Virus record (IMG/VR): IMGVR_UViG_3300043788_000134
Coordinates: 5,882 to 69,881 of that record
Direction: 5' to 3' (one strand)
DNA length: 64,000 nucleotides
DNA from: a virus
Shown here: positions 3,372 to 63,100 of the stretch, piece by piece
Layout: the number at the start of each line of letters is the position of its first letter
Position numbering within the stretch: position 1 is the stretch's first letter
The notes under the pieces: model-generated
The model's input: only the letters and a program-made list of their open reading frames with translations
Told to the model about the DNA's origin: nothing
The model's database searches: none
Position numbers and translations under genes: made by a program

Positions 3372-5171
3372 TCACGCCGCCACGCCAAACGTCGCGGTTT
3401 CCAGATCGCTCACGGCAAGCCCGAACGCCGCGAATCGATCGGCCCAGTACGGCGACGTGTGCAATCGCTCGCGCAATCGCGCGATAAGCTGCACCGGCAC
3501 TCTGCCGTGCAAGCGATATTCGAGGACGCCCAAGAAATAGAGCGCAAAACCGTTTTCTGGCGAGATCACTTCCGACAGCACCGTGAGATTTTGCATCTGT
3601 TGCTTGATCTTGACCGGCCGCGTTTCGTTCAAGAGCCGCCGAAAATTCAAATGATAGTTCATGTAGAACCAGATATCGGTTATCTGCTCGCCGGTCGGAA
3701 TATCGTCTGGCTTGATTTTGGCGAAGGCTTCGCGAAAGCCGAGATGCGCGAGTATCAGACCTTGTTCGATCTCGGTTTGCTTGCCGTAAGAGCCGCCGGC
3801 AAAGCGCAACTCCTTCGATCCCACGTCCTGGATAAGACCTTGCGCCACCATCGCATCATAAATAGGCGTATTCGGGAGCGGTTGCAGAGGGCTGATTCGA
3901 TACCAATCACAGTCCATCTCGCGCGCCACATTGATCGTGTCGTGGACCATGCCGAGGGTTTCATTCGGAAAGCCCACCATCAAAAGGACGGACGTGTGAA
4001 TTTGCTCATGCTCGCGGAAAATTTGCGCCGCCTCGATGAAGTTTTCGAGCGTGCCTGGTTTTTTGACTTGGCGCAAGATCGTCCGGTTGCCTGATTCCAT
4101 GCCGATATTAACCGCGATACAGCCAGACTCGGCCATCGCGGCAACAAGAGCCGGCGTACACGACGACGCGATGATGCCGTTGGTGGCGTCCCAGGTGACA
4201 TCGATCTTTCTGCGGACAATCTCATTGAACATTTGCGTGGCGCGGTGCTCGTCCTTCAAAAGATCGTCATCGAGCCACATGAAGTGGCCGACGCCGTAAT
4301 CGTTCACCAGCATTTCGATTTCATCGACGACGTTCGTATAGTCGCGTTGGCGCACGCCCTTGCCGTTGAAATTCCGCACCGAGCAGAACGTGCACTGCGC
4401 GCGGCATCCGCGATTGGACAACACCGTGGCAAAAACCGTATCCTTGGGCTTGAAGCAATAAAACGCGCCGATCGTGCCGTGCTTGGAATGTTCGGGAATG
4501 TCGAGGAGGTCGAATGCCGGGATGATCGAGATATCTTCGGGCACGCAGTCGGCCGTTAGATGGATGCGTTCGGGTTTGTTGATGATGAGTTGAGCAAGGT
4601 CGGTCACGGGACGCAGCCGATTCACGGCTTGGACAAAGCGCGGCAACGACTCGTCGGCTTCGCGAAGGAACGCGGCGGAGACACAGGGAATGTCATCAAG
4701 CACACGCTCCACGTCGTTCGTCACATGCACGCCACCGATGGCGACAGGAGCGTAAGCCGCGGCGAAGGTGCACACGTCCTTGAGCGACTGATGACTCATG
4801 GTGAACATGCAGCCGACGCCGATCAGGTCCGGTGCGGTGTCATAGATGGCCTTGAACAAAGCCCACTTCCACGTCGCCGTGTGGTCAAAGGCCCCGCTTC
4901 CCCGCGCCGCCTTGAGCACGATATGATTCAGGTTCAGAATCTGCATATCCACGTCGATGGCGCGAAGCTGTTGCGCCAGCAACGCCAGTCCGTAGGGAGG
5001 GTAATTGGTGTAGCGACCGCGCTTGGCGATTTCAGGACGGAACAGGTTGGCATCCGCGTCGGGGGGGTTGACCAGAAGCACGCGGCGGATTTGGCGGGCG
5101 GGAAATAGCGCAGAGAGAGCCGCGTCCACAGCGGTTGGGTCATGAGAGCGGAGTGGCGGGGATAGGGTCAT
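3372..5171 (-). CDS. B12-binding-domain radical SAM enzyme
   Basis: 599 aa; N-terminal RVLLVNPP...GGVH cobalamin-binding-like region then CxxxCxxC motif CRAQCTFC; first codons lie inside PIR 5137-5182. Confidence 0.85.
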   Translation of the reverse strand: MTLSPPLRSHDPTAVDAALSALFPARQIRRVLLVNPPDADANLFRPEIAKRGRYTNYPPYGLALLAQQLRAIDVDMQILNLNHIVLKAARGSGAFDHTATWKWALFKAIYDTAPDLIGVGCMFTMSHQSLKDVCTFAAAYAPVAIGGVHVTNDVERVLDDIPCVSAAFLREADESLPRFVQAVNRLRPVTDLAQLIINKPERIHLTADCVPEDISIIPAFDLLDIPEHSKHGTIGAFYCFKPKDTVFATVLSNRGCRAQCTFCSVRNFNGKGVRQRDYTNVVDEIEMLVNDYGVGHFMWLDDDLLKDEHRATQMFNEIVRRKIDVTWDATNGIIASSCTPALVAAMAESGCIAVNIGMESGNRTILRQVKKPGTLENFIEAAQIFREHEQIHTSVLLMVGFPNETLGMVHDTINVAREMDCDWYRISPLQPLPNTPIYDAMVAQGLIQDVGSKELRFAGGSYGKQTEIEQGLILAHLGFREAFAKIKPDDIPTGEQITDIWFYMNYHLNFRRLLNETRPVKIKQQMQNLTVLSEVISPENGFALYFLGVLEYRLHGRVPVQLIARLRERLHTSPYWADRFAAFGLAVSDLETATFGVAA

Positions 5172-5182
5172 CGGTCACCGTT
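5137..5182 (+). repeat. PIR half-site, subtype B2, forward
   Basis: gggtcatgagagcggagtggcggggatagggtcatcggtcaccgtt. Confidence 0.9.
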
Positions 5183-5191
5183 CTATTGAGC

Positions 5192-5404
5192 TCAAACTAC
5201 GCCGATGTAAGCGGCCTTAAACCGTTGATAACTATCCTCCAGTACAGCCGCATCCAGATGATCAAAGGCGTTGAACCGTAAATGGGGATATTTCTCTAGG
5301 GTTGCCTCATGGCCACATTTGCCATCCTCTGGAACGCCGCGACGCAGTTCTTCGAGGCAAAAGGGGCACACGTCGTTGAACGGATCGAACGCGGTCATTG
5401 CCAT
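5192..5404 (-). CDS. small Cys/His-containing protein (70 aa)
   Basis: ATG 5404 with GGGGGAGG 8 nt upstream; MAMTAFDPFNDVCPFCLEEL...; only gene between PIR 5137 and PIR 5439. Confidence 0.45.
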   Translation of the reverse strand: MAMTAFDPFNDVCPFCLEELRRGVPEDGKCGHEATLEKYPHLRFNAFDHLDAAVLEDSYQRFKAAYIGVV

Positions 5405-5438
5405 TACTGTGCCTCCCCCTGATTTTACCATGGTCAGC

Positions 5439-5473
5439 GTTGACCGCACCGGAATCCCTGCGGTTCCGTGACC
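5439..5473 (-). repeat. PIR half-site, subtype A, reverse
   Basis: gttgaccgcaccggaatccctgcggttccgtgacc. Confidence 0.9.
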
Positions 5474-5478
5474 AAATC

Positions 5479-6399
5479 TTAATTCACCGGGAGACGTTCC
5501 GCAACACGTCCGCCGAACGATTGCCGGAATCGCCACCGATCGATGCGTGCCACCTTGTAGGCAATAACATCAATCGACGGCGTGAATTTCGTCGCCATAC
5601 CTCCGGTCGGCTTCAACGACGCCCGCAACGGCCGAGGTTCGCTATAGACGATTTCGGAGAACGGCACCGGCTCAAACGCCATCCGGGCGCCCAACAGGCT
5701 TTGCTCTTTGACCATTTGCGCCAATTCCGCCCGCGACACCGCCGGTTGACTGACCAGATGATAAATCCGTCGCGTCACGGGCTTTGTCGCAATTTCCAAT
5801 AAGCCTCTCGCCGTATCGTTCACGTCCGATACATTGAAAATATTATCCACCGCCATGCGCGCGTTCGGTTTGAGCAGCGTTTCATAGCATTGCGCCACCG
5901 GGCAGTGCTGGCCTTGGACCCATCCCACGTTCCATCCCGTGCGCGCCACGACGCCGCGCGGCGTGCACAGCACATGACTTTCCACGGCAGCTTTCAATGC
6001 GCCGTAGACATTGAGCGGGCGTCGTGCGGTATCTTCGGAGCAATCCCCCGCTTTACCGTCAAACACCTGGTCGGTAGATAAAAACACCACCCGCGCGCCG
6101 GCGTCGTCCGCATCATCGACGAGGTTCTTGCTGGCGTGCAGATTCAAAAGCCACGCCGCTTCCTGATTCGCGTAAATCCACGCAGGAGCGATATAGCCCG
6201 CAAGCAGCACCACCACATCGTCAGCATTCAAGTCGGGAACCACGGTGCGCAGCGACGCGGTTCGCATGTCGAACGGCACGAGGCCGTAGCGCACACGGCT
6301 TAAAGCGGTGCCAATGGCTGGTACACGCGCGGTGCGGGCCTCTTGGTGAAGCACACTGCCGATGACGCCGGAGGCACCGACGATGATGATTCGGGTCAT
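5479..6399 (-). CDS. RmlD-like NAD(P)-dependent sugar reductase (dTDP-4-dehydrorhamnose reductase family)
   Basis: IIIVGASGVIGS Rossmann motif, LSTDQVFDG and YGALK motifs; ATG 6397-6399 lies inside PIR outer block (CTCTCATGACCC). Confidence 0.7.
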   Translation of the reverse strand: MTRIIIVGASGVIGSVLHQEARTARVPAIGTALSRVRYGLVPFDMRTASLRTVVPDLNADDVVVLLAGYIAPAWIYANQEAAWLLNLHASKNLVDDADDAGARVVFLSTDQVFDGKAGDCSEDTARRPLNVYGALKAAVESHVLCTPRGVVARTGWNVGWVQGQHCPVAQCYETLLKPNARMAVDNIFNVSDVNDTARGLLEIATKPVTRRIYHLVSQPAVSRAELAQMVKEQSLLGARMAFEPVPFSEIVYSEPRPLRASLKPTGGMATKFTPSIDVIAYKVARIDRWRFRQSFGGRVAERLPVN

Positions 6400-6439
6400 G
6401 AGAGCGGAGCGGCGAGTGAGAGGATTATCGGTCACCGTT
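6393..6439 (+). repeat. PIR half-site, subtype B2, forward
   Basis: gggtcatgagagcggagcggcgagtgagaggattatcggtcaccgtt. Confidence 0.9.
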
Positions 6440-6448
6440 GCTCACAAA

Positions 6449-6694
6449 TTATTGCGGCCGACTTCGACGACAACAATCTTGCTCGGATCGACCATTTCGC
6501 TCAGCGTCTCGACGGCGTTCTTGTCCCGGTCGTACGGCTTTGATCGCCGCTTCGGCGCGTCTGCCATAGAACGCCAGATCGTGAGTGTAGGCAGCGCGGC
6601 CGATCAGGAACGAAATGACAGAATAGATACCGCCAATGTCGCCCAAGAGGCGGCCGGTGGAAGTTCCGAGAACGGCGTGAGTTGGAAATTTCAT
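6449..6694 (-). CDS. small hypothetical phage protein (81 aa)
   Basis: ATG 6694 with GGAGG; MKFPTHAVLGTSTGRLLGDIGG...; only gene between PIR 6393 and PIR 6723; leader nearly identical to that of ORF 25934. Confidence 0.45.
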   Translation of the reverse strand: MKFPTHAVLGTSTGRLLGDIGGIYSVISFLIGRAAYTHDLAFYGRRAEAAIKAVRPGQERRRDAERNGRSEQDCCRRSRPQ

Positions 6695-6722
6695 AGCTTC
6701 CCTCCTATTACAAACAACCGCG

Positions 6723-6757
6723 GTTGACCGCACCGTAATCCCGGCCTCTCGTGATCC
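6723..6757 (-). repeat. PIR half-site, subtype A, reverse
   Basis: gttgaccgcaccgtaatcccggcctctcgtgatcc. Confidence 0.95.
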
Positions 6758-6762
6758 AAAGA

Positions 6763-7713
6763 CTACTCCGCCGCAACCTCAAATCCCCGATGCAGATCGC
6801 TCGCCGGCTTATTCCACACCGTACAGCCGGAGCACATATCGATCCGATCGCGATTCCCCGCAAGATGGAGTTCGCGCCGCTCATTCTGCAGCTTGCTTTG
6901 CCACAACTCCGCGATGGAATGCGTCGCCACATCGCCCAGCGGATGTTTGTTGTTGTAATCGACATTGCACATCGGCACCTTGCCGTCGGCAAAGATCACC
7001 ATGAGCGACCACAGCGCCACGCAAGGCAGTTTGTTCGGCCTTTCCGGATCAAAGCCAGCCAACTGGCCGCCCCAATTGTGAATATTGAGAAAATAGCAGC
7101 GGTCATTATCGCGCAACAACGGTTTCCAATAGGCATAGAACGCCGGAAACTCATCGCGATTGGATTCCTGGCGAATCATCCGCACCCAGATCGAGCATGA
7201 CGGGCGGATTTTGTCGCGCATTTTGATAAACCGCAGAGCGTTCTTCATCACGGTCTCAAAATTAAGCCGCACGCGGATTGCTTCAAACACGGCCTTGTCG
7301 AGACTGTCAATCGACAGCACCACTTCATCGATTCCAGCCTCAAGAATCGCCGTGGCGCGATCCTCGTCCAGCAATTCGACGTTGGTGGAAATGCCGACGT
7401 TCTTGATGCCGCCGCCCTTCAATCGCTTGATGCGCTTCGGCAGCTTCTTGTCCAAAAGCGGTTCGCCGTCGCGATAAAGCGCCACGCGCTTGACATCGTG
7501 CTTGTGCGCGCAAATCTCCGCCGCGATGACCTCGAACAGCGCGTCGTTCATGCTCGGCGTATGGCGCGTCCAATCGTCGATCGTGCACATCGGACAGCGC
7601 GCGTTGCAGGCGTTCACCGTCTCGATCTCGAAATAGAGCGGAAAATCGGAAAGCGACGCGAACGGCCGCTCCGGCGCGATGCGATTTGACAGGTAGGTTT
7701 CGAGCGGCGTCAT
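6763..7713 (-). CDS. radical SAM enzyme with C-terminal SPASM/twitch-like Cys cluster
   Basis: 316 aa from MTPLETYL; CNARCPMC radical SAM motif; C-terminal CVALW...MCNVDY...CSGC; ATGA overlap with upstream gene at 7710-7713. Confidence 0.8.
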   Translation of the reverse strand: MTPLETYLSNRIAPERPFASLSDFPLYFEIETVNACNARCPMCTIDDWTRHTPSMNDALFEVIAAEICAHKHDVKRVALYRDGEPLLDKKLPKRIKRLKGGGIKNVGISTNVELLDEDRATAILEAGIDEVVLSIDSLDKAVFEAIRVRLNFETVMKNALRFIKMRDKIRPSCSIWVRMIRQESNRDEFPAFYAYWKPLLRDNDRCYFLNIHNWGGQLAGFDPERPNKLPCVALWSLMVIFADGKVPMCNVDYNNKHPLGDVATHSIAELWQSKLQNERRELHLAGNRDRIDMCSGCTVWNKPASDLHRGFEVAAE

Positions 7714-17333: not shown

Positions 17334-17350
17334 CGGATTCGGTCACCGTT
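17303..17350 (+). repeat. PIR half-site, subtype B1, forward
   Basis: gcatcacgagaggttgtgccgtttgcagcaccggattcggtcaccgtt. Confidence 0.9.
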
Positions 17351-22518: not shown

Positions 22519-22821
22519 TTATGGCGTGAGTAGATTGCAGCGTTGGGTCATGCGAGCGGAGTGTGTGACGAGAGAATCATCGGTCACCGTCTCGCTTTGC
22601 ACAGTCGCGGTTGACCGCACCGTACCCACATATCCCTCGTGACCCAACTCTTTCTTCACGGCTTGGTCTAACTCCTTCCGCCACCGCATCACCCGCTCTC
22701 CCGCCGCAACGATAGTAGCATGGCGCCCTTCGTAGCTCTTGGCGAATGCAACAAACAAATAATCAAACGACGCCTTTTCAAGCTCACGCTCGGCCTCTTG
22801 ACGCCACATCGCTGTCTCCAC
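22519..22821 (-). CDS. hypothetical protein whose last ~44 codons read through a PIR pair
   Basis: 100-aa ORF; C-terminal ...GHEGYVGTVRSTATVQSETVTDDSLVTHSARMTQ... is encoded by PIR 22610 and 22545. Confidence 0.35.
   Translation of the reverse strand: METAMWRQEAERELEKASFDYLFVAFAKSYEGRHATIVAAGERVMRWRKELDQAVKKELGHEGYVGTVRSTATVQSETVTDDSLVTHSARMTQRCNLLTP
22545..22590 (+). repeat. PIR half-site, subtype B2, forward
   Basis: gggtcatgcgagcggagtgtgtgacgagagaatcatcggtcaccgt. Confidence 0.85.
22610..22645 (-). repeat. PIR half-site, subtype A, reverse
   Basis: gttgaccgcaccgtacccacatatccctcgtgaccc; 19 nt from PIR 22545 (empty pair). Confidence 0.85.
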
Positions 22822-24626: not shown

Positions 24627-24670
24627 CACGAGAGGCCCCACCGGCTGAGAGACCGGAATCGGTCACCGTT
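24623..24670 (+). repeat. PIR half-site, subtype B1, forward
   Basis: gcatcacgagaggccccaccggctgagagaccggaatcggtcaccgtt. Confidence 0.9.
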
Positions 24671-29630: not shown

Positions 29631-29959
29631 GCAGACAAAAAGTTATCGATGGCCTCAGGGACGCCGTGTCCGGTAATCTGTCACGAGTCACCATTGAGGG
29701 TCAGGTTTGGCAGCGCACATCGGCCGATCCAAACCCGATCCCACCGTTTTACTGTTCGCGCACGTTGCTTGGGTTTGCTGGCGGACCAGATCTCAATCGC
29801 ATTACGCTCCAAATGCCGGGTCGCTATCACGACAGCAACCAAATCGTGCTATGCGAAATGAATGCAGCGCGCACCGACGATGACATAAAGCGCTGGAATA
29901 AACTTGCGGCGGAGTTGTCGCGCGTCTGGATCGAACTGAATCCACTAAAAAGACCTTAA
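29627..29959 (+). CDS. hypothetical protein (110 aa)
   Basis: ATGA overlap with upstream ORF. Confidence 0.4.
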   Translation: MSRQKVIDGLRDAVSGNLSRVTIEGQVWQRTSADPNPIPPFYCSRTLLGFAGGPDLNRITLQMPGRYHDSNQIVLCEMNAARTDDDIKRWNKLAAELSRVWIELNPLKRP

Positions 29960-30050
29960 TGGACAAACAACGGTGACCGCGTATTTATCCCTTCACAGCA
30001 TTTAAAGGTTGTGGTAGTGGGTAAGTGCGGTCTCGCTAGGAGATCGCTAA

Positions 30051-31094
30051 ATGCGCGAATGTACAGGTTGGTACAACTTAGACCATTTAAATTGGGTCTA
30101 CGAAATCGAGGCCGCGGAGGCAGGGATGCGCGTTTCAGACAAGGTTCTGAAATGTGTGGTTTTCATTGGCGTTGAGAAGCCGGGTGGCTTCGAGCCAGTG
30201 GGGACCGGCTTCGTTGTAATGGTGCCGCAAGGACAGGTTGGCTTCCAATACGTCGTGACAGCGCAGCATGTGCTTGATGGCCTCAGAGAGCCAATTTCAA
30301 TCCGCGTCAATAGAAAGAACGGCGAAGCCGAGCCCATCAAGCCACCATTTGGATGGTATTACCATCCAGATAACAGTCGCTTTGTTGATGTTGCTGTCGC
30401 GCCAATTCTCCTGCAATTGGATACGTATGACGTTATCCACATTAAGATGAAGGATTTTTGTGATTTGCAGTTTTTGCTTGAACGTGACGTCGGAGTTGGA
30501 GACGAACTTTTTTATCCGAGTCTTTTTATGCACCGTCGCGGATTACACAGAAACCATCCAGTTATGCGGTTTGGTGAACTTGCAGCGATGCCGTTAGAGC
30601 CGGTCATAACAAGGTCAGGACCTATTTTGGCATACCTAATGGAAGGTCGCTCTATCGGGGGCCATAGCGGCGCGCCGGTTTTTATCAATTTTCTAGCACC
30701 CCGCACCTATTATTCAGATCAGGTTGTACAGCTTCCACATCCCAATCAGGCGCAAGGCTACCGATTACTGGGGCTGATTCGCGGCTTTCTAAAAGCGAAG
30801 GATACGGGCGAGTACATAACCGATGATCCGAAAGCAGAAGATTTGTGGATAAACTCTGGAATCTCAACTATCATTCCAACGTCAGAGATTTTTGAAACAC
30901 TCATGCAGGATGATCTTGTGCAGCAACGAAACGAACACGCAAAGAGAGTTATAGACGGTCTCGCCGACGTACCAGCAAGTGCGCGTCCCGCAAGCGATTC
31001 GAAGCCTTTGGACGGCGACGCCAATCCCAATCACCTAGCGGATTTCACACGTCTTGTAGACGTGGCAGCCCGAAAGCGGCCACAAGACGATTAA
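30051..31094 (+). CDS. trypsin-like (chymotrypsin-fold) serine protease, IS passenger
   Basis: 347 aa; His VVTAQHV, Asp FVDVAVAP, Ser GGHSGAPVF in canonical order. Confidence 0.6.
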   Translation: MRECTGWYNLDHLNWVYEIEAAEAGMRVSDKVLKCVVFIGVEKPGGFEPVGTGFVVMVPQGQVGFQYVVTAQHVLDGLREPISIRVNRKNGEAEPIKPPFGWYYHPDNSRFVDVAVAPILLQLDTYDVIHIKMKDFCDLQFLLERDVGVGDELFYPSLFMHRRGLHRNHPVMRFGELAAMPLEPVITRSGPILAYLMEGRSIGGHSGAPVFINFLAPRTYYSDQVVQLPHPNQAQGYRLLGLIRGFLKAKDTGEYITDDPKAEDLWINSGISTIIPTSEIFETLMQDDLVQQRNEHAKRVIDGLADVPASARPASDSKPLDGDANPNHLADFTRLVDVAARKRPQDD

Positions 31095-31941
31095 ACATCG
31101 CTTCATGTGAATTGCGGTAGTTGCGTCGATAGGTGAACTCGGCGACGTATTTCCACATGTGTTTCGCCGAAATATGGACGTGAGTGCCGCGTACTGCGCG
31201 CTTGAAATGTCCCCACTGTCCTTCAATCGTATTCGTGTGGTGGACGCCAGCAACCCATTGCTTCTTGCTGTGGTTGACGCGGCCAAGATCGAAGCCGTGC
31301 TTTAGATCGTTGTAGGAATCCCATTCATCCGCCGTGAGGCGAGTGCCTTCCTTGACGTGGCCACGCACGATGGACTCCAATGTGTCTTGCGAAAGGTTCG
31401 GAATCGGGCCAGCGCGCATTTTGCCGTCCCGTTCCACCATCCCGAACACAAGGCTCTTGTTCGATCCTTTAGTGCGGCGCTCGCGGTTGCTCTGATAACC
31501 GCCCATAACCGTTTCGTCGATTTCAACGTGCTTGCCATCGCCACCGAGAGGGCCGCCAAAGTCGGCCGACGCCATCAGCTTCCGCAGTTCGTGGCACATC
31601 CGCCAAGCGCACTTATAGGTCACGCCTAGCTGCCTCTGGACCTCCGCAGCGGCCACGCCATGGCGGGTGCTGGTCATGAGGTACATCGCGAAAAACCACT
31701 TGGTGAGGTTCGTGCGGCTCTTGTGGAAGATCGTACCGGCAGCCGGGTAAATGTGGTGGCCGCAATGCTGGCACACGAACGCCCGGCGCTTGGCGAGGGG
31801 ATGGAATTTCGAATCGGCGCCGCAGCCCGGGCAGGTGATTTCGGTCCCGCCGTAGTTCACCTCCATCAATTTACGGAGGCAGGCCGCGTCGTCCGGGTAA
31901 ATCGCCTGGAAGGCCTTAAAAGTGTGGGTTCCTGGCTTCAT
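31045..31941 (-). CDS. IS1595-family (ISXO2-like) DDE transposase
   Basis: N-terminal zinc ribbon CPGCG...CQHCGH, then VEIDETVMGG, LTADEWDSYN, NTIEGQWGHFKR motifs. Confidence 0.85.
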   Translation of the reverse strand: MKPGTHTFKAFQAIYPDDAACLRKLMEVNYGGTEITCPGCGADSKFHPLAKRRAFVCQHCGHHIYPAAGTIFHKSRTNLTKWFFAMYLMTSTRHGVAAAEVQRQLGVTYKCAWRMCHELRKLMASADFGGPLGGDGKHVEIDETVMGGYQSNRERRTKGSNKSLVFGMVERDGKMRAGPIPNLSQDTLESIVRGHVKEGTRLTADEWDSYNDLKHGFDLGRVNHSKKQWVAGVHHTNTIEGQWGHFKRAVRGTHVHISAKHMWKYVAEFTYRRNYRNSHEAMFNRLVAAFGLPRLQDV

Positions 31942-32011
31942 GACTATCCCCTACCCTCGATTGTGGGGATACCCTATCAACCCTTATAAATGCTGTCAAG
32001 GGATAAATACG

Positions 32012-32056
32012 CGGTGACCGATGATCCCCTCAGCAATCGCTCCGCGCAGATGACCC
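32012..32056 (-). repeat. PIR half-site, subtype B2, reverse (its inner end split by the IS; other copy of CGGTGACCG at 29971-29979)
   Basis: cggtgaccgatgatcccctcagcaatcgctccgcgcagatgaccc; ATG of ORF 32050 inside outer block. Confidence 0.9.
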
Positions 32057-32493
32057 AACCTAAACCCCAACGCATCACCCCGCCGGCGGCCCCAGGCGCA
32101 TTGCTCAAGCGTGCCTTCGGCCTCGCCCAGCGCATCAAACTCCGCGACAGCAACGATCGCGATCCAGTCTATCTGGCCTTAGTCCGGCAGTGTCCTTGCC
32201 TCAAATGCGGAATGGACCCGTGTGGCGAAGCGGCTCACGTCCGATTCAACTCCGGCGCCCACGGCAAGCACAACGGCTTAGGCAAAAAGCCTGCCGATCG
32301 CTTCGCGCTGCCGCTTTGCGCCGGCTGTCACCGCGAAGATAACGACGCGCAACACAAAATCGGGGAACTTGAATTCTGGAACCGCGTCGGGCTTAATCCA
32401 ATTCTCACCGCGGCAAAGCTTTACGCCGCCAAAGGCGACATCGTGCGAATGCGTGCGGTCGTGTTTGCTGTAGTAGCATCGCGACGATCCTGA
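32050..32493 (+). CDS. DUF968 / P1 Ref-like Zn-finger HNH-type protein
   Basis: CPCLKCG...AAHV...GLGKKPADRFALPLCAGCHRE..DAQH pattern (recalled, not searched). Confidence 0.5.
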   Translation: MTQPKPQRITPPAAPGALLKRAFGLAQRIKLRDSNDRDPVYLALVRQCPCLKCGMDPCGEAAHVRFNSGAHGKHNGLGKKPADRFALPLCAGCHREDNDAQHKIGELEFWNRVGLNPILTAAKLYAAKGDIVRMRAVVFAVVASRRS

Positions 32494-35282: not shown

Positions 35283-36335
35283 ATGCCAAGCATTCAGCTT
35301 GCGGCGAAAGATCGAGACATCGTCGCCTCCCTCTGGACAAAAGCGGACGGCGCATCCGAGAGCCAGCGCATCGACGCTATTGAGAAGCAGATCGGGCGTT
35401 CGCTTACACGCGGCTGGTGTCGCCTTCATTTCGGCTTTCCGGGAGGCAAGCAAACCGTTTTCCTAGCAAAGAAATCGCCTGCCGAAATTCGCAGGAAAAA
35501 TGCTGGCCGATGGCCTTACCAGCGCGCTGCTACCGGGGAAGTAATGCACGTCGGCATGAACTATTTGTCGGAGCTAGTCGTGCGTCCCGGCATTCGCAAA
35601 TATCTTGAACCGCTCTGCCTCTACCGTGGACAAATGAGCCCAGGGCACGCGCACCGGTATTGGAATTTCGTTCTGCTTATGATGGCAGCCGAAGCCGAGA
35701 CGCTTGCCGACGGGATTAGACTTTACGGTAATGAGGCGTTCGCCCAACTGTGCGGCCCACAGCGGGCGCCATCTCGGATGACGCTGCATAGTTTCTTCGG
35801 GCGGCTTTGGGACAATCGAGACGTGACGGATGAAATATCCGGACTGACCGATTACGTTCGGTCTCTCGAAATCGGGCCGTGCCGCCTAGCGCCGGTCCCT
35901 CACGTCACTCAAGAACGCTATTGCGCGTCATGGCGCATTTCCGATCATCCTGAATGGGACCCGAAGGCAGAACGTCCCGAGAGCGGCGTTCGTGCCCTTT
36001 ATTATCCCTATCTGGCCCACAATCCCAAGAAGCCGGACGACGGCCGCGACCTTGTCTTGCTTGCCAATTCGCTGGTCCCAACTTACTGGCCCGATTTTGC
36101 CCGCGCCGATCTGTGTCAGGAACTCATCGTCGCGATTCTCTCCAGCGAAACGACCAAAGAGAACGCTCACGACTACATGCAAAAGGCTAAGCGAAAATTC
36201 TTTAAGGATCAGCCGTTCCTTTATGAACAGGGTCAGCTTGCGCCAAAATCCATGGACGCTCCTTTCGGAGCAGAAGATGATCGAACACTACATGACGTTA
36301 TAGCGGATCGTCTGACAATGGACGTAGAGCCATGA
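35283..36335 (+). CDS. hypothetical protein (350 aa) coupled to the recombinase gene
   Basis: ATG 35283 with GAGGAG RBS; stop overlaps integrase start (ATGA, 36332-36335); no motif recognised. Confidence 0.5.
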   Translation: MPSIQLAAKDRDIVASLWTKADGASESQRIDAIEKQIGRSLTRGWCRLHFGFPGGKQTVFLAKKSPAEIRRKNAGRWPYQRAATGEVMHVGMNYLSELVVRPGIRKYLEPLCLYRGQMSPGHAHRYWNFVLLMMAAEAETLADGIRLYGNEAFAQLCGPQRAPSRMTLHSFFGRLWDNRDVTDEISGLTDYVRSLEIGPCRLAPVPHVTQERYCASWRISDHPEWDPKAERPESGVRALYYPYLAHNPKKPDDGRDLVLLANSLVPTYWPDFARADLCQELIVAILSSETTKENAHDYMQKAKRKFFKDQPFLYEQGQLAPKSMDAPFGAEDDRTLHDVIADRLTMDVEP

Positions 36336-37282
36336 ACCTCTCCGCGCTCATTCACGATTACCGTGCCGACACGGCATCGCCTTACGGCAAGCTGCGGATC
36401 GGCACGCGCCAGCGATACGATTCGCTGCTGCGCCGGATCGAGCGTGATCTAGGCGAGCGCGATGTCAGCACGATCAAGGGCCGCGACCTGACGGTGGCCT
36501 ACGAGGAATGGGCCAAGAGCGGTGTTCCCATGGCCCACGGCTTGATGCAGATGCTTCGGACGATAGCTGGCTACGGTGCCACGCTGCTCGATGACGAAGC
36601 CTGCGCGACGCTGGCAACGAAGATGCGGTTCCTTCGGTTCAAGATGGGCCAGCCGCGCCAGGTCAGGATCACGGCACCCCAAGTGGTCGCCATCCGCCGG
36701 CAAGCGCACCTGATGGGCCTGCACTCAATCGCCCGCGCGCAAGCCCTGCAATTCGAGGGGACGTTTCGCCAAAGGGACGTGATCGGGGAATGGGTGCCGA
36801 TCTCCGAGCCCGGCGAAAGCTATGTGGAGTGGGAAGGCCGGAAGTGGCTTCGCGGGCTGCGGTGGGAAGAAATCGACGCCGACCGCGTGCTTCGCCACAT
36901 CACTAGCAAGAAGCAAAAGGAAGTCGAGATCGACCTTAAGCTGGCCGATATGGTGATGCAGGAGTTCGGCGCCGTCGAGTGGCCGAAGCGCGGCCCCGTC
37001 ATCACCGCCGAAGCGACCGGCAAGCCTTGGACCGCCGTCGAGTTCCGCCGCATGTGGCGCGTCGTGGCGCGCGAAGCGGGCATCCCTGATGAGATCAGGA
37101 ACATGGACTCCAGGGCCGGCGCTATCAGCGAAGCCACCGACGCGGGCGCGAGCCTCGAAATGGTGCGCCACGCGGCAACGCACTCTGATGTGGCGACAAC
37201 AGCGCGCTATAGCCGCAACGCGCCGGACAAGATCAAGGAAGTTCAACGGCTACGATTGCAGCATAGGGAAACAACGCCATGA
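36332..37282 (+). CDS. tyrosine recombinase / integrase
   Basis: 316 aa; TFRQRD (Arg), DSRAGAISE, MVRHAATHSDVATTARYSR (His...Tyr) C-terminal catalytic pattern. Confidence 0.75.
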   Translation: MNLSALIHDYRADTASPYGKLRIGTRQRYDSLLRRIERDLGERDVSTIKGRDLTVAYEEWAKSGVPMAHGLMQMLRTIAGYGATLLDDEACATLATKMRFLRFKMGQPRQVRITAPQVVAIRRQAHLMGLHSIARAQALQFEGTFRQRDVIGEWVPISEPGESYVEWEGRKWLRGLRWEEIDADRVLRHITSKKQKEVEIDLKLADMVMQEFGAVEWPKRGPVITAEATGKPWTAVEFRRMWRVVAREAGIPDEIRNMDSRAGAISEATDAGASLEMVRHAATHSDVATTARYSRNAPDKIKEVQRLRLQHRETTP

Positions 37283-47913: not shown

Positions 47914-47961
47914 GGATCACGAGAGGGGAGAACGTGTGGATAGTCCGGTTCGGTCACCGTT
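47914..47961 (+). repeat. PIR half-site, B1-like, forward
   Basis: ggatcacgagaggggagaacgtgtggatagtccggttcggtcaccgtt. Confidence 0.85.
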
Positions 47962-48125
47962 CGGTTGTACAAAAAATGGCCGCGCGGGGAACGCACTACG
48001 TTCCAACGCCGCTTCTTTTTCCCCGACAGCGGCGGTTTCCTAAGACCAGAGCATCCGAGCCAGTTACGGGGATGTGATAGTCCGGGGAGGTGTCGGCCGG
48101 TTGGTTACGGCTTCCGCGCGATTCC

Positions 48126-48405: not shown

Positions 48406-49476
48406 GCGGTGGCTTTACCCGCGCAATACGCGCCATTATTTCCTCAAATCTCATGCCGGCGCGAAATGGCGAACGCGCGACGATGCCCTTGGTCACGCGA
48501 TCAGTCCTTTATAGGTCAGACGACCTTCGACTTCGGAGCAAAATTGTTTGATGCGCTCCCCGCCGCTCATACCGCGTCGACTCATGCGCCATGCCATTTC
48601 GTCAAGGTATTTTTGCAAATGTTTTGGCGATACCCAATGATGGGTGCCATTAATTTGCCGCTTCAATTGCGACCAAACGGCCTCAATCGTTTGTGTGTTT
48701 GCTTCTCCACTCCGGCCTTCACCCTTAGAATGATTGACCATCGCGTGCTTTGCAACATCTAAACTGCGATAGGCGCGTCCCGAATCCGTCACCAACTCAG
48801 CATCGGGTGACACGATATCGTCGACAAACTGCTGCGCTTCCGGCTTACCAAGACCTAGCGGCGCAACCCGCGCCACAACCCGACCCTTACGTTCGGCCGC
48901 AGCGATGACTTGCGTTTTGCCGTAGGCACTTTTGCCGCCGCTACCGAAAAAACCATCATCCACTTCAACAACTCCAGAAAGCGGCTTATTAAACGACTTG
49001 TTTCGCGCGGCGTAGCGAAGACGGTGAAGAACAAACCACGCGCTAGGCTGAGAAATGCCTAAATCCTTAGCCAGGGTCGTAGATGCAATCCCTTTTGGGT
49101 GATTAGCCAAAAGCCATATCGCGCCGAACCATATCCGCAGCGGCAATTTGGTATCGCCAAAGATCGTTCCGACGGTCACAGAAAAATTGCTGCGGCATTT
49201 GCTGCACTTATAGGCTTTTTTTCCTGCCTTTTGTATTGTGTAGATTTTCTCACGAGAAGCACAGTAGGGGCAGAACTTGCCGTCTTTCCATCGGATGGCC
49301 GCAAAATATTCCACGGCGGCTTCTGGCTTGCGAAAAGCAATCATCAAATCCGGCAGCGTTTTGAATTGGTCAATCATCGTCCGCTCCACTCTGTTTACGC
49401 AATCATAATACCGCGAAAAAGCCCGGTGTCAACATCTATCTAGGCCTGTATCGCGGTATTGCCACCAGTCCACCGC
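48406..49476. mobile_element. second IS1595-family element, boundaries tentative
   Basis: transposase ORF plus weak imperfect inverted repeats gcggtggctttacccgcgcaatacgcg (48406-48432) and cgcggtattgccaccagtccaccgc (49452-49476); no target duplication seen. Confidence 0.3.
48493..49389 (-). CDS. IS1595-family (ISXO2-like) DDE transposase
   Basis: zinc ribbon CPYC...CSKC, VEVDDGFFG, LVTDSGRAY, NTQTIEAVWSQLKR; same architecture as 31045-31941 but divergent. Confidence 0.85.
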   Translation of the reverse strand: MERTMIDQFKTLPDLMIAFRKPEAAVEYFAAIRWKDGKFCPYCASREKIYTIQKAGKKAYKCSKCRSNFSVTVGTIFGDTKLPLRIWFGAIWLLANHPKGIASTTLAKDLGISQPSAWFVLHRLRYAARNKSFNKPLSGVVEVDDGFFGSGGKSAYGKTQVIAAAERKGRVVARVAPLGLGKPEAQQFVDDIVSPDAELVTDSGRAYRSLDVAKHAMVNHSKGEGRSGEANTQTIEAVWSQLKRQINGTHHWVSPKHLQKYLDEMAWRMSRRGMSGGERIKQFCSEVEGRLTYKGLIA

Positions 49477-63029: not shown

Positions 63030-63056
63030 GTCCTTCCTTCATTCAAAAAGAAAGAA

Positions 63057-63100
63057 CGGTGACCGACGATTCTCTCCGCACACGCTCCGCTCACATGATA
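63057..63100 (-). repeat. PIR half-site, subtype B2, reverse (diverged outer block)
   Basis: cggtgaccgacgattctctccgcacacgctccgctcacatgata. Confidence 0.7.

Follow-up and report, generated by a model that had tools for sequence, protein, structure and literature searches.

Mobile elements that choose their targets by the binding sites of regulators are known mostly among eukaryotic retroelements and among Tn7-type transposons, which use dedicated selector proteins. Here we describe a bacterial insertion sequence (IS) of the IS1595 family that resides in a phage, in a 64,000-nucleotide stretch of viral DNA (positions 5,882 to 69,881 of the IMG/VR record IMGVR_UViG_3300043788_000134; hereafter the window), and that pairs its transposase gene with a gene for a trypsin-like protease. 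The window copy is an ordinary-looking insertion, and the interest lies in its family: we consider it probable that the element represents a clade of two-gene ISs with an exchangeable, conflict-type protease cassette and an operator-directed transposase, and that its hop into a repeated motif of the phage was itself directed.

Within the IS1595 family, the element resembles the passenger-carrying ISNwi1-type subgroup (ISNwi1+). The two have in common a zinc-ribbon transposase of ~300 aa, inverted repeats, ~8-bp duplications, alphaproteobacterial hosts, a length of ~2 kb from an extra gene, and ends of the form GGnnnATTTAT. Ends in our set such as GGCAGATTTATCCC (locus L008, Nitrobacter) resemble the subgroup consensus, which we treat as a lead only. 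Unlike in that type, every member here carries one protease family, encoded convergently with and overlapping the transposase and exchanged as a cassette, and the targets appear to be operator-directed.

In its target choice, the clade is like Tn7/TnsD at attTn7 and safe-haven transposons, since it inserts at a fixed distance from a conserved sequence beside an essential gene and leaves that gene intact. Unlike Tn7/TnsD, it has no separate selector gene, its specificity tracks the DDE transposase, the operator is present at several loci, and about one third of the copies lie elsewhere. Promoter-proximal insertion upstream of genes, set by a regulator's site, is also the habit of Ty3 with TFIIIB, Tf1 with Sap1/Atf1 and Ty5 with Sir4; in contrast to these retroelements, ours is a bacterial DNA transposon, for which recognition of the LexA or HrcA protein and of the bare operator are both conceivable. 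The protease, in turn, shares a homologous trypsin-like domain and high sequence diversity with PDC-S45 and the protease-type Lamassu LmuA, but in the window the match spans residues 24-119 only, and the gene is IS-borne, has an invariant tail and lacks an LmuB/SMC partner. Its predicted fold resembles HtrA, DegS and MamO of the PA clan (TM-score up to 0.76 normalised to the target; His-Asp-Ser in the same order), whereas it has no PDZ domain and no noticed signal peptide or membrane anchor, is only 11-19% identical in sequence, and bears a helical extension with a conserved tail at its C-terminus. In the literature we searched, neither an IS1595 clade linked to a protease nor the exchange of cassettes inside an IS is described, and the same holds for the targeting of LexA boxes or CIRCE by an IS.

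A two-gene IS1595 element with a constant protease partner

The intact element spans 2032 bp (29980-32011) and is organized, together with its junctions, as follows.

29971..29979 (+): left copy of the target duplication, CGGTGACCG, the core of the phage motif (C)AAC-GGTGACC-GA
29980..30009 (+): left terminal inverted repeat, at the protease end, with the conserved core TTTATCCCTT[C/G]ACAGCATTTA
29992-29999: inward-facing -35-like TTCACAGC within the left repeat, a putative promoter
30051..31094 (+): predicted chymotrypsin-fold serine protease gene, 347 aa, with invariant H73, D113 and S206 (GGHSGAP)
31941..31045 (-): IS1595-family DDE transposase gene with N-terminal zinc ribbon, 298 aa (Pfam/NCBIfam)
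31982..32011 (-): right terminal inverted repeat, at the transposase end
31992-31999 and 31971-31978: inward-facing TTGACAGC within the right repeat and, 13 nt later, GATAGGGT, a putative promoter
32012..32020 (+): right copy of the target duplication, CGGTGACCG

The left end reads CGTATTTATCCCTTCACAGCATTTAAAGGT and the right end, as its reverse complement, CGTATTTATCCCTTGACAGCATTTATAAGG; the 30-nt end pattern fits them with 2 and 0 mismatches, respectively, and these are the sole two such sites in the window, with 0 expected by chance. The transposase matches the Pfam models DDE_Tnp_IS1595 (PF12762, 3.3e-35) and Zn_ribbon_IS1595 (PF12760, 7.6e-8) as well as the NCBIfam IS1595 transposase NF033547 (3.6e-55; 187 bits against a cutoff of 75). 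With a zinc-ribbon DDE transposase, terminal inverted repeats and a duplication of ~8 bp, the element thus displays the traits of the IS1595 family that we looked for. The two open reading frames (ORFs) converge and overlap by 50 nt (31045-31094). An earlier note on this DNA, made from the sequence alone, had recognized this element, its terminal inverted repeats (given there as ~29 bp), the flanking duplication, the zinc-ribbon transposase, and the convergent, overlapping chymotrypsin-fold protease with His, Asp and Ser in order. It had also placed the insertion exactly in the core of a dispersed phage motif. All of these points held, whereas its view of the protease as an occasional or unusual passenger did not, as shown below. 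Neither the preference of the clade for repressor operators nor the LexA-box layout of the phage motif had been noticed in it.

The duplication, which the earlier note gave as 8-9 bp and which we read as 9 bp, can be taken as 7, 8 or 9 bp because the target core is near-palindromic and the terminal base of the IS is ambiguous. Clean 8-bp duplications flank relatives at loci L003, L005, L010, L025, L059, L077, L078 and L105, and the window repeat is compatible with this family value. Excising the element in silico yields the empty site AACGGTGACCGATGATCCCC, which resembles other copies of the motif. The promoters in the repeats are putative, as read against the alphaproteobacterial promoter consensus; a generic sigma-70 scan of the element ends returned nothing meaningful. 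The element is intact and probably active. A second TATCCC repeat (GTATCCCCACAATCGAGGGTAGGGGATA) occurs at the transposase end of many elements (in the window at 31945-31975, between the promoter-like repeat and the transposase ATG) and is missing from the protease end; it may be an additional transposase-binding or regulatory site. An Rfam search of 29800-32200 found no known RNA family, and megablast with the element and with 27-35 kb of the window found no match in the phage or plasmid collections.

To place the element in its family, we scanned metagenomes with the window transposase, which retrieved at least 363 relatives. The best 80 (63-94% identity) were taken, and 50 of these were informative, having at least 1.1 kb of sequence downstream of the transposase. 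None of these 50 loci lacks the protease, which is full-length in 47 and partial in three, so that a chance passenger is not what we observe. The same architecture was found in GTDB genomes, where at 12 of 14 protease-homologue loci the protease gene converges on, and overlaps, that of an IS1595 transposase. Their hosts are Alphaproteobacteria, including Nitrobacter sp. JJSN, Variibacter, Rhizomicrobium and Hyphomicrobiales. The closest protease relative examined on a long contig (76% identity) repeats even the 50-nt overlap, in a chromosomal context. At both ends of the elements we identified the core TTTATCCCTTGAC[AG][GC]CA[TA][TG]TA, conserved in more than 40 loci; it always brackets the protease-transposase pair and comes with ~8-bp duplications. 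Many relatives lie on contigs of 2.0-2.4 kb, the size of the IS, as expected for a repeated element.

Several loci depart from the intact layout. At L015 and L018 (IMG/VR contigs, ~5001-7130), a tailed protease is followed by an 18-aa remnant of the C-terminus of its cognate transposase and then by a distant IS1595 transposase (31% identity), a layout that suggests either replacement of the backbone or insertion of a second element. L013 and L014, on contigs of metagenome-assembled genomes and adjoining recA, are decayed copies: in L013, the transposase is 96% identical to that of the window and the protease is frameshifted and of another type, while L014 retains its two ends, but its transposase is broken and nothing except the tail is left of the protease.

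The protease body as a probable exchangeable cassette

If transposase and protease had been inherited together, their divergence should be correlated. Among the 58 elements with both genes intact, the mean identity is 71% for the transposase and 31% for the protease, and the two are barely related (Spearman 0.21), so co-divergence was rejected. Proteases of only 26-47% identity ride with transposases that are 90-97% identical, and conversely proteases up to 82% identical accompany transposases of 60-70% identity. Clustering the same elements at 50% identity gives a single transposase cluster and 39 protease clusters. In the window, the element divides accordingly into a hypervariable body and a conserved tail.

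30057..31015 (+): hypervariable protease cassette body, whose DNA cannot be aligned with that of elements having 90-92% identical transposases
31016..31094 (+): conserved protease C-terminal tail, DANPNHLADFTRLVDVAARKRPQDD, part of the backbone; the final 50 nt overlap the 3' end of the transposase gene in antisense

These boundaries emerged from a DNA comparison of the window element with six elements whose transposases are 88-92% identical. In the first 60 nt, identity is ~50-90% for five of the six (L032 is unaligned there); it falls to 30-50% across the protease body, which is effectively unalignable, and rises to 80-90% from 31016 to the right end. The same step appears in an eight-element profile. 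The conserved left block extends over the promoter-like repeat, the leader and the first two codons, and the right block opens with the last 26 codons of the protease, 10 of which lie outside the transposase ORF. Variation within these 10 codons falls mostly at third positions, which indicates that the tail is constrained as a protein. In agreement with its place in the backbone, the tail has a mean pairwise identity of 62%, against 29% for the protease body, and tracks the backbone. A tail search of 1.84 billion representatives gave 41 matches at E <= 0.001. Of the 19 examined, most belong to this protease family or are fragments of it, and the exceptions are a tail fused to a cupin (probably an insertion artefact), a tail behind an unrelated N-terminus and a pair of repetitive proteins. 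A general module shared by many protein families was therefore rejected as a description of the tail.

The simplest reading of this mosaic pattern is that the protease body is a cassette that has repeatedly been exchanged, through recombination in the tail and in the conserved left end. The backbone would consist of both terminal repeats with their inward promoter-like sequences, the transposase and ~80 nt of protease tail, bracketing the cassette, and cassettes would be swapped between elements through recombination in the two conserved flanks.

A hypervariable chymotrypsin-fold protease, probably kept under restraint

The window protease matches the Pfam model Trypsin_2 (PF13365) below threshold (15.9 bits against a cutoff of 27.6; E = 0.023), and a sequence search of the PDB with it gave no match. 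Its relatives are more telling: we found 162 homologues and aligned 39 of them at 30-74% identity, 27 of which match Trypsin_2 at E <= 0.01 (best 1.2e-10). Across this alignment, H73, D113 and S206 are invariant, together with G204, G207 and P209 of the GGxSGxP motif. An AlphaFold2 model reached a mean predicted local distance difference test score (pLDDT) of 79.3, with a core above 90. Foldseek aligned it to 377 PDB entries at E <= 0.001, the best being the MamO protease domain, DegS and HtrA (1e-8 to 1e-6), with further matches to viral 3C proteases, thrombin and factor Xa. Because of the invariant triad, the Trypsin_2 matches of the relatives and the matches of the model, a catalytically competent chymotrypsin-fold serine protease is well supported.

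Ahead of the protease start codon, we predicted a hairpin that sequesters the Shine-Dalgarno sequence.

30027..30047 (+): leader hairpin GCGGUCUC-GCUAG-GAGAUCGC, enclosing the protease Shine-Dalgarno AGGAG (30038-30042)

The predicted fold has an energy of -21.2 kcal/mol (z = -2.4). When the leaders of the relatives were folded as single sequences, hairpins pairing with the Shine-Dalgarno appeared in 14 different cassettes, with stems of differing sequence, which suggests that translation of the protease is restrained. Both this hairpin and convergent transcription with the transposase would keep the protease quiet.

What such a protease might do is hinted at by defence gene models. The window protease matches PADLOC PDC-S45 with E = 9.1e-10, residues 24-119 aligning with profile positions 9-115 of 293. 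PDC-S45, a phage defence candidate (PMC12429752), is matched by all 39 aligned relatives at E <= 0.001 (best 1.3e-19). The Lamassu LmuA model is matched by 22 of the 39. Together with the intact triad, the apparently restrained expression, and the hypervariability and exchange of the cassette, this homology makes a conflict-type effector, serving in defence, abortive infection or addiction, the most likely role of the protease.

The strongest competitor of this role is a protease that serves the IS itself, as a transposition or regulatory cofactor that processes the transposase or cleaves LexA or HrcA, coupling transposition to stress, and whose tail docks to the transposase. Its obligate linkage to the transposase and a tail that co-varies with the backbone and is constrained as a protein speak for such a partnership, as do targets that are the operators of two repressors, one of which, LexA, is a natural substrate of proteolysis. 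A cofactor of this kind is nevertheless hard to square with near-identical transposases that carry proteases of 26-47% identity and 39 types, if the substrate is a conserved one such as LexA or the transposase itself, and hypervariability of this sort is typical of conflict genes. Moreover, the protease does not set the target: the class of operator used by an element (LexA box or CIRCE, see next section) matches that of its nearest transposase relative in 29 of 29 cases and that of its nearest protease relative in only 17 of 29. We rejected the protease as target selector on this ground, and regard the cofactor role as unlikely relative to that of a conflict-type effector.

Insertions at fixed offsets from LexA boxes and CIRCE operators

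We then surveyed 88 distinct flanks, scanning outward from the IS tip. The LexA box of Alphaproteobacteria has the consensus GAAC-N7-G[AT]AC (PMC3091678). Such a box is present in 24 of the 88 flanks, at an offset of 14/15 in 23 of them and of 12 in one, next to 13 different duplications; the offset equals the duplication plus 6 nt, and the box is always oriented away from the IS. Another eight flanks carry a CIRCE-type inverted repeat, [CT]T[AG]GCAnT[CG]-N9-GAGTGCTA, at an offset of 12/13 and next to eight different duplications. In 1.1 Mb of retrieved loci, all eight CIRCE-like motifs lie at IS tips. Behind the LexA boxes stand recA, a dnaE-type polymerase gene and radA, and behind CIRCE groES; recA directly adjoins the element in 27 loci. 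Either end of the IS may face the operator, and all insertions seen lie on the side away from the gene. The elements share with target-site-specific transposons independent insertions at a set distance from a recognizable sequence. They encode no dedicated selector protein beside the transposase: the only second gene is the protease, and the target class does not follow it. As this class follows the transposase and only poorly the protease, specificity resides in the transposase or backbone.

Base-precise offsets shared by 21 distinct duplications point to target selection rather than shared ancestry. The contrary explanation is that a few old insertions near recA and groES were inherited, or that only harmless or beneficial insertions survived. 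It draws on the many recA loci that are orthologous (RecA 86-97% identical), on the recurrence of one duplication, CATATTGCG, in ~15 loci, and on the gene-distal restriction, which would result from selection and which we too think is probably explained by it. Against it stand 21 distinct duplications, the two copies of each agreeing exactly, at shared offsets of 14/15 or 12/13, beside four different genes and in both IS orientations, as well as the position of all eight CIRCE-like motifs of 1.1 Mb at IS tips and a target class that tracks the transposase subclade without exception (29 of 29); selection alone would not fix an offset to the base. We therefore hold inheritance or survival to be an improbable account of the association.

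Under operator-directed insertion, the transposase would carry out ordinary DDE transposition with an ~8-bp duplication, but would choose its targets. One subclade would insert a fixed 6 nt upstream of, or inside, the LexA (SOS) boxes of recA, dnaE and radA, and the other 4 nt upstream of the CIRCE/HrcA operator of groES. Since insertions lie on the side of the operator away from the gene, the essential gene would be left intact.

A further conserved block, GGTACTGGCCTnTTT...AGTGGCCTAATTT, lies 13-14 nt upstream of recA and radA SOS boxes, so that insertions 6 nt upstream of a box fall between it and the box (L004, L007, L008, L033, L074, L077, L078, L080, L089 and L092). A different mobile element with a preference for this site might end here, or the block may have a regulatory function.

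The phage insertion shares the register of SOS-box insertions

The window is phage DNA, with a large terminase (5e-82) and portal, ejection and virion proteins. An integrase-family ORF (36332-37282, +; Pfam 6e-8) suggests that the phage is probably temperate, which fits acquisition of the IS by a resident prophage. There are 12 copies of the duplicated sequence CGGTGACCG in the window, where 1.0 would be expected; it belongs to a motif, AACGGTGACCGA, with 27 matches at no more than two mismatches, against 6.5 expected. Its strand follows the direction of the genes; start codons come ~30 nt after it, and a second conserved block, CTCCGCTCnCATGACC, lies downstream of the motif. Examples of the motif are given here.

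5171-5182: motif copy
6428-6439: motif copy
17339-17350: motif copy
22580-22591: motif copy
24659-24670: motif copy
47950-47961: motif copy
63055-63066: motif copy

Written as nAAC-GGTGACC-GAnn, the motif has the half-site layout of the alphaproteobacterial LexA box (nAAC-N7-GAnn), and the copy at 47948-47962 is a perfect GAAC-N7-GAAC. The window transposase falls in the SOS-box subclade and is 96% identical to that of L013 and 88-92% identical to those of L031-L038. All of those elements have inserted within the first SOS box of recA, GAA[C ATATTGC G]AAC, where the bracketed 9 nt, CATATTGCG, are duplicated. The phage target, CAA[C GGTGACC G]ATG, has the same register. No canonical LexA box or CIRCE lies 12-15 nt from the window insertion on either side, so only the in-box register fits it. 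Because the window transposase belongs to the SOS-box subclade and the register is the same, we think that the insertion into the phage motif was directed, not random. In this scenario, a copy from the SOS-box subclade would have moved, most likely from the host chromosome to a resident temperate phage, into a LexA-box-like motif.

The gene downstream of the insertion has a weak functional match.

32050..32493 (+): downstream phage gene, weak DUF968 / RecA-dependent nuclease-like match

Both flanks are co-oriented phage genes, and the insertion splits the upstream motif of this gene from its former preceding sequence. Five IMG/VR contigs encode a homologue of the downstream gene (62% identity) but have neither the upstream gene nor the motif. 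Viral matches to the upstream gene or to the repeat pattern were not found, and no IS-free sister phage came to light. Past the motif core, the first ATG opens a 10-codon frame, MIPSAIAPRR (32021-32053, +), whose stop overlaps the downstream start codon (AGATGA). It could be a coupled upstream ORF, a feature absent from the motif copy at 5172, the sole other copy checked. Elsewhere in the window, a second IS1595-type transposase gene (48493-49389, -) matches DDE_Tnp_IS1595 (5.7e-30) and the zinc ribbon (4.1e-10) and is only 26% identical to the transposase of the element; it lies ~530 nt from the perfect GAAC-GGTGACC-GAAC copy of the motif. Around it, we found no recognizable terminal repeats and no adjacent protease.

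Weighing the evidence

Taken as a whole, the account of a two-gene IS clade with an exchangeable protease cassette, an operator-directed transposase, a directed hop into the phage motif and a conflict-type protease is one that we hold with reasonable, though not full, confidence. A bolder version goes further. Namely, a single DDE transposase would be guided to repressor operators at base-precise offsets beside stress promoters, carrying dozens of recombining protease cassettes as mobile conflict or defence effectors; the phage motif would be a LexA-type operator and SOS-controlled prophages natural targets. We put this version forward tentatively, as a conjecture somewhat less likely than not.

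Several observations weigh against our account. Single-domain proteases without a sensor domain are unusual among defence systems. About one third of the elements sit at sites without a recognizable operator. The phage motif matches the LexA box only partially (nAAC-N7-GAnn), and its central palindrome and position before many genes could fit a phage-specific promoter or operator too. The in-box rule rests on one chromosomal site plus the window, since in recA a second box follows 6 nt downstream of the in-box position. Members of the clade may already be listed as passenger-carrying ISNwi1-type elements. Finally, the PDC-S45 match of the window protease is limited to its N-terminal third, and PDC-S45 is itself a candidate only (PMC12429752).

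The reading closest to that of the earlier note, in which an ordinary IS1595 element chanced on a protease as cargo, delivered it to a phage as a one-off, and thereby supplied a defence or abortive-infection effector, fares poorly. The protease does lie within the inverted repeats and is related to PDC-S45 and the Lamassu LmuA model, and tblastn with it found no match in 50,697 phage and 72,556 plasmid records. This reading is largely refuted by the linkage, since the pair is the rule across a clade of at least 363 relatives (47 full and three partial of 50 informative loci) and the protease tail is part of the IS backbone. Most copies, moreover, are chromosomal in Alphaproteobacteria and not in phages, the protease body is exchanged like a cassette, and the protease-transposase pair occurs on at least four other IMG/VR contigs. 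Chance cargo is accordingly very improbable. An assembly artefact, namely a repeat-induced chimera of an IS contig in a phage contig, is scarcely credible: many relatives do assemble as stand-alone 2.0-2.4 kb contigs, typical of collapsed repeats, but here the same 9-bp duplication flanks both junctions, removal of the element restores a motif copy, and co-oriented phage genes continue on both sides.

Implications

If these inferences hold, the clade would provide a bacterial IS that selects its targets by the binding sites of regulators. Two transposases that are ~70% identical appear to read two different operators, which would make them a compact system for studying how target specificity changes, and possibly a basis for operator-directed insertion tools. 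For their hosts, insertions in the recA SOS box or by the operators of recA, dnaE, radA and groES could alter the regulation of stress responses in soil Alphaproteobacteria. For the phage, the insertion would identify its dispersed motif as resembling a LexA box and thus point directly to the regulator behind it. The obligatory, cassette-like protease, with 39 types in 58 elements, would represent an unstudied family, related to a candidate defence gene, that is spread by the IS into chromosomes and prophages.

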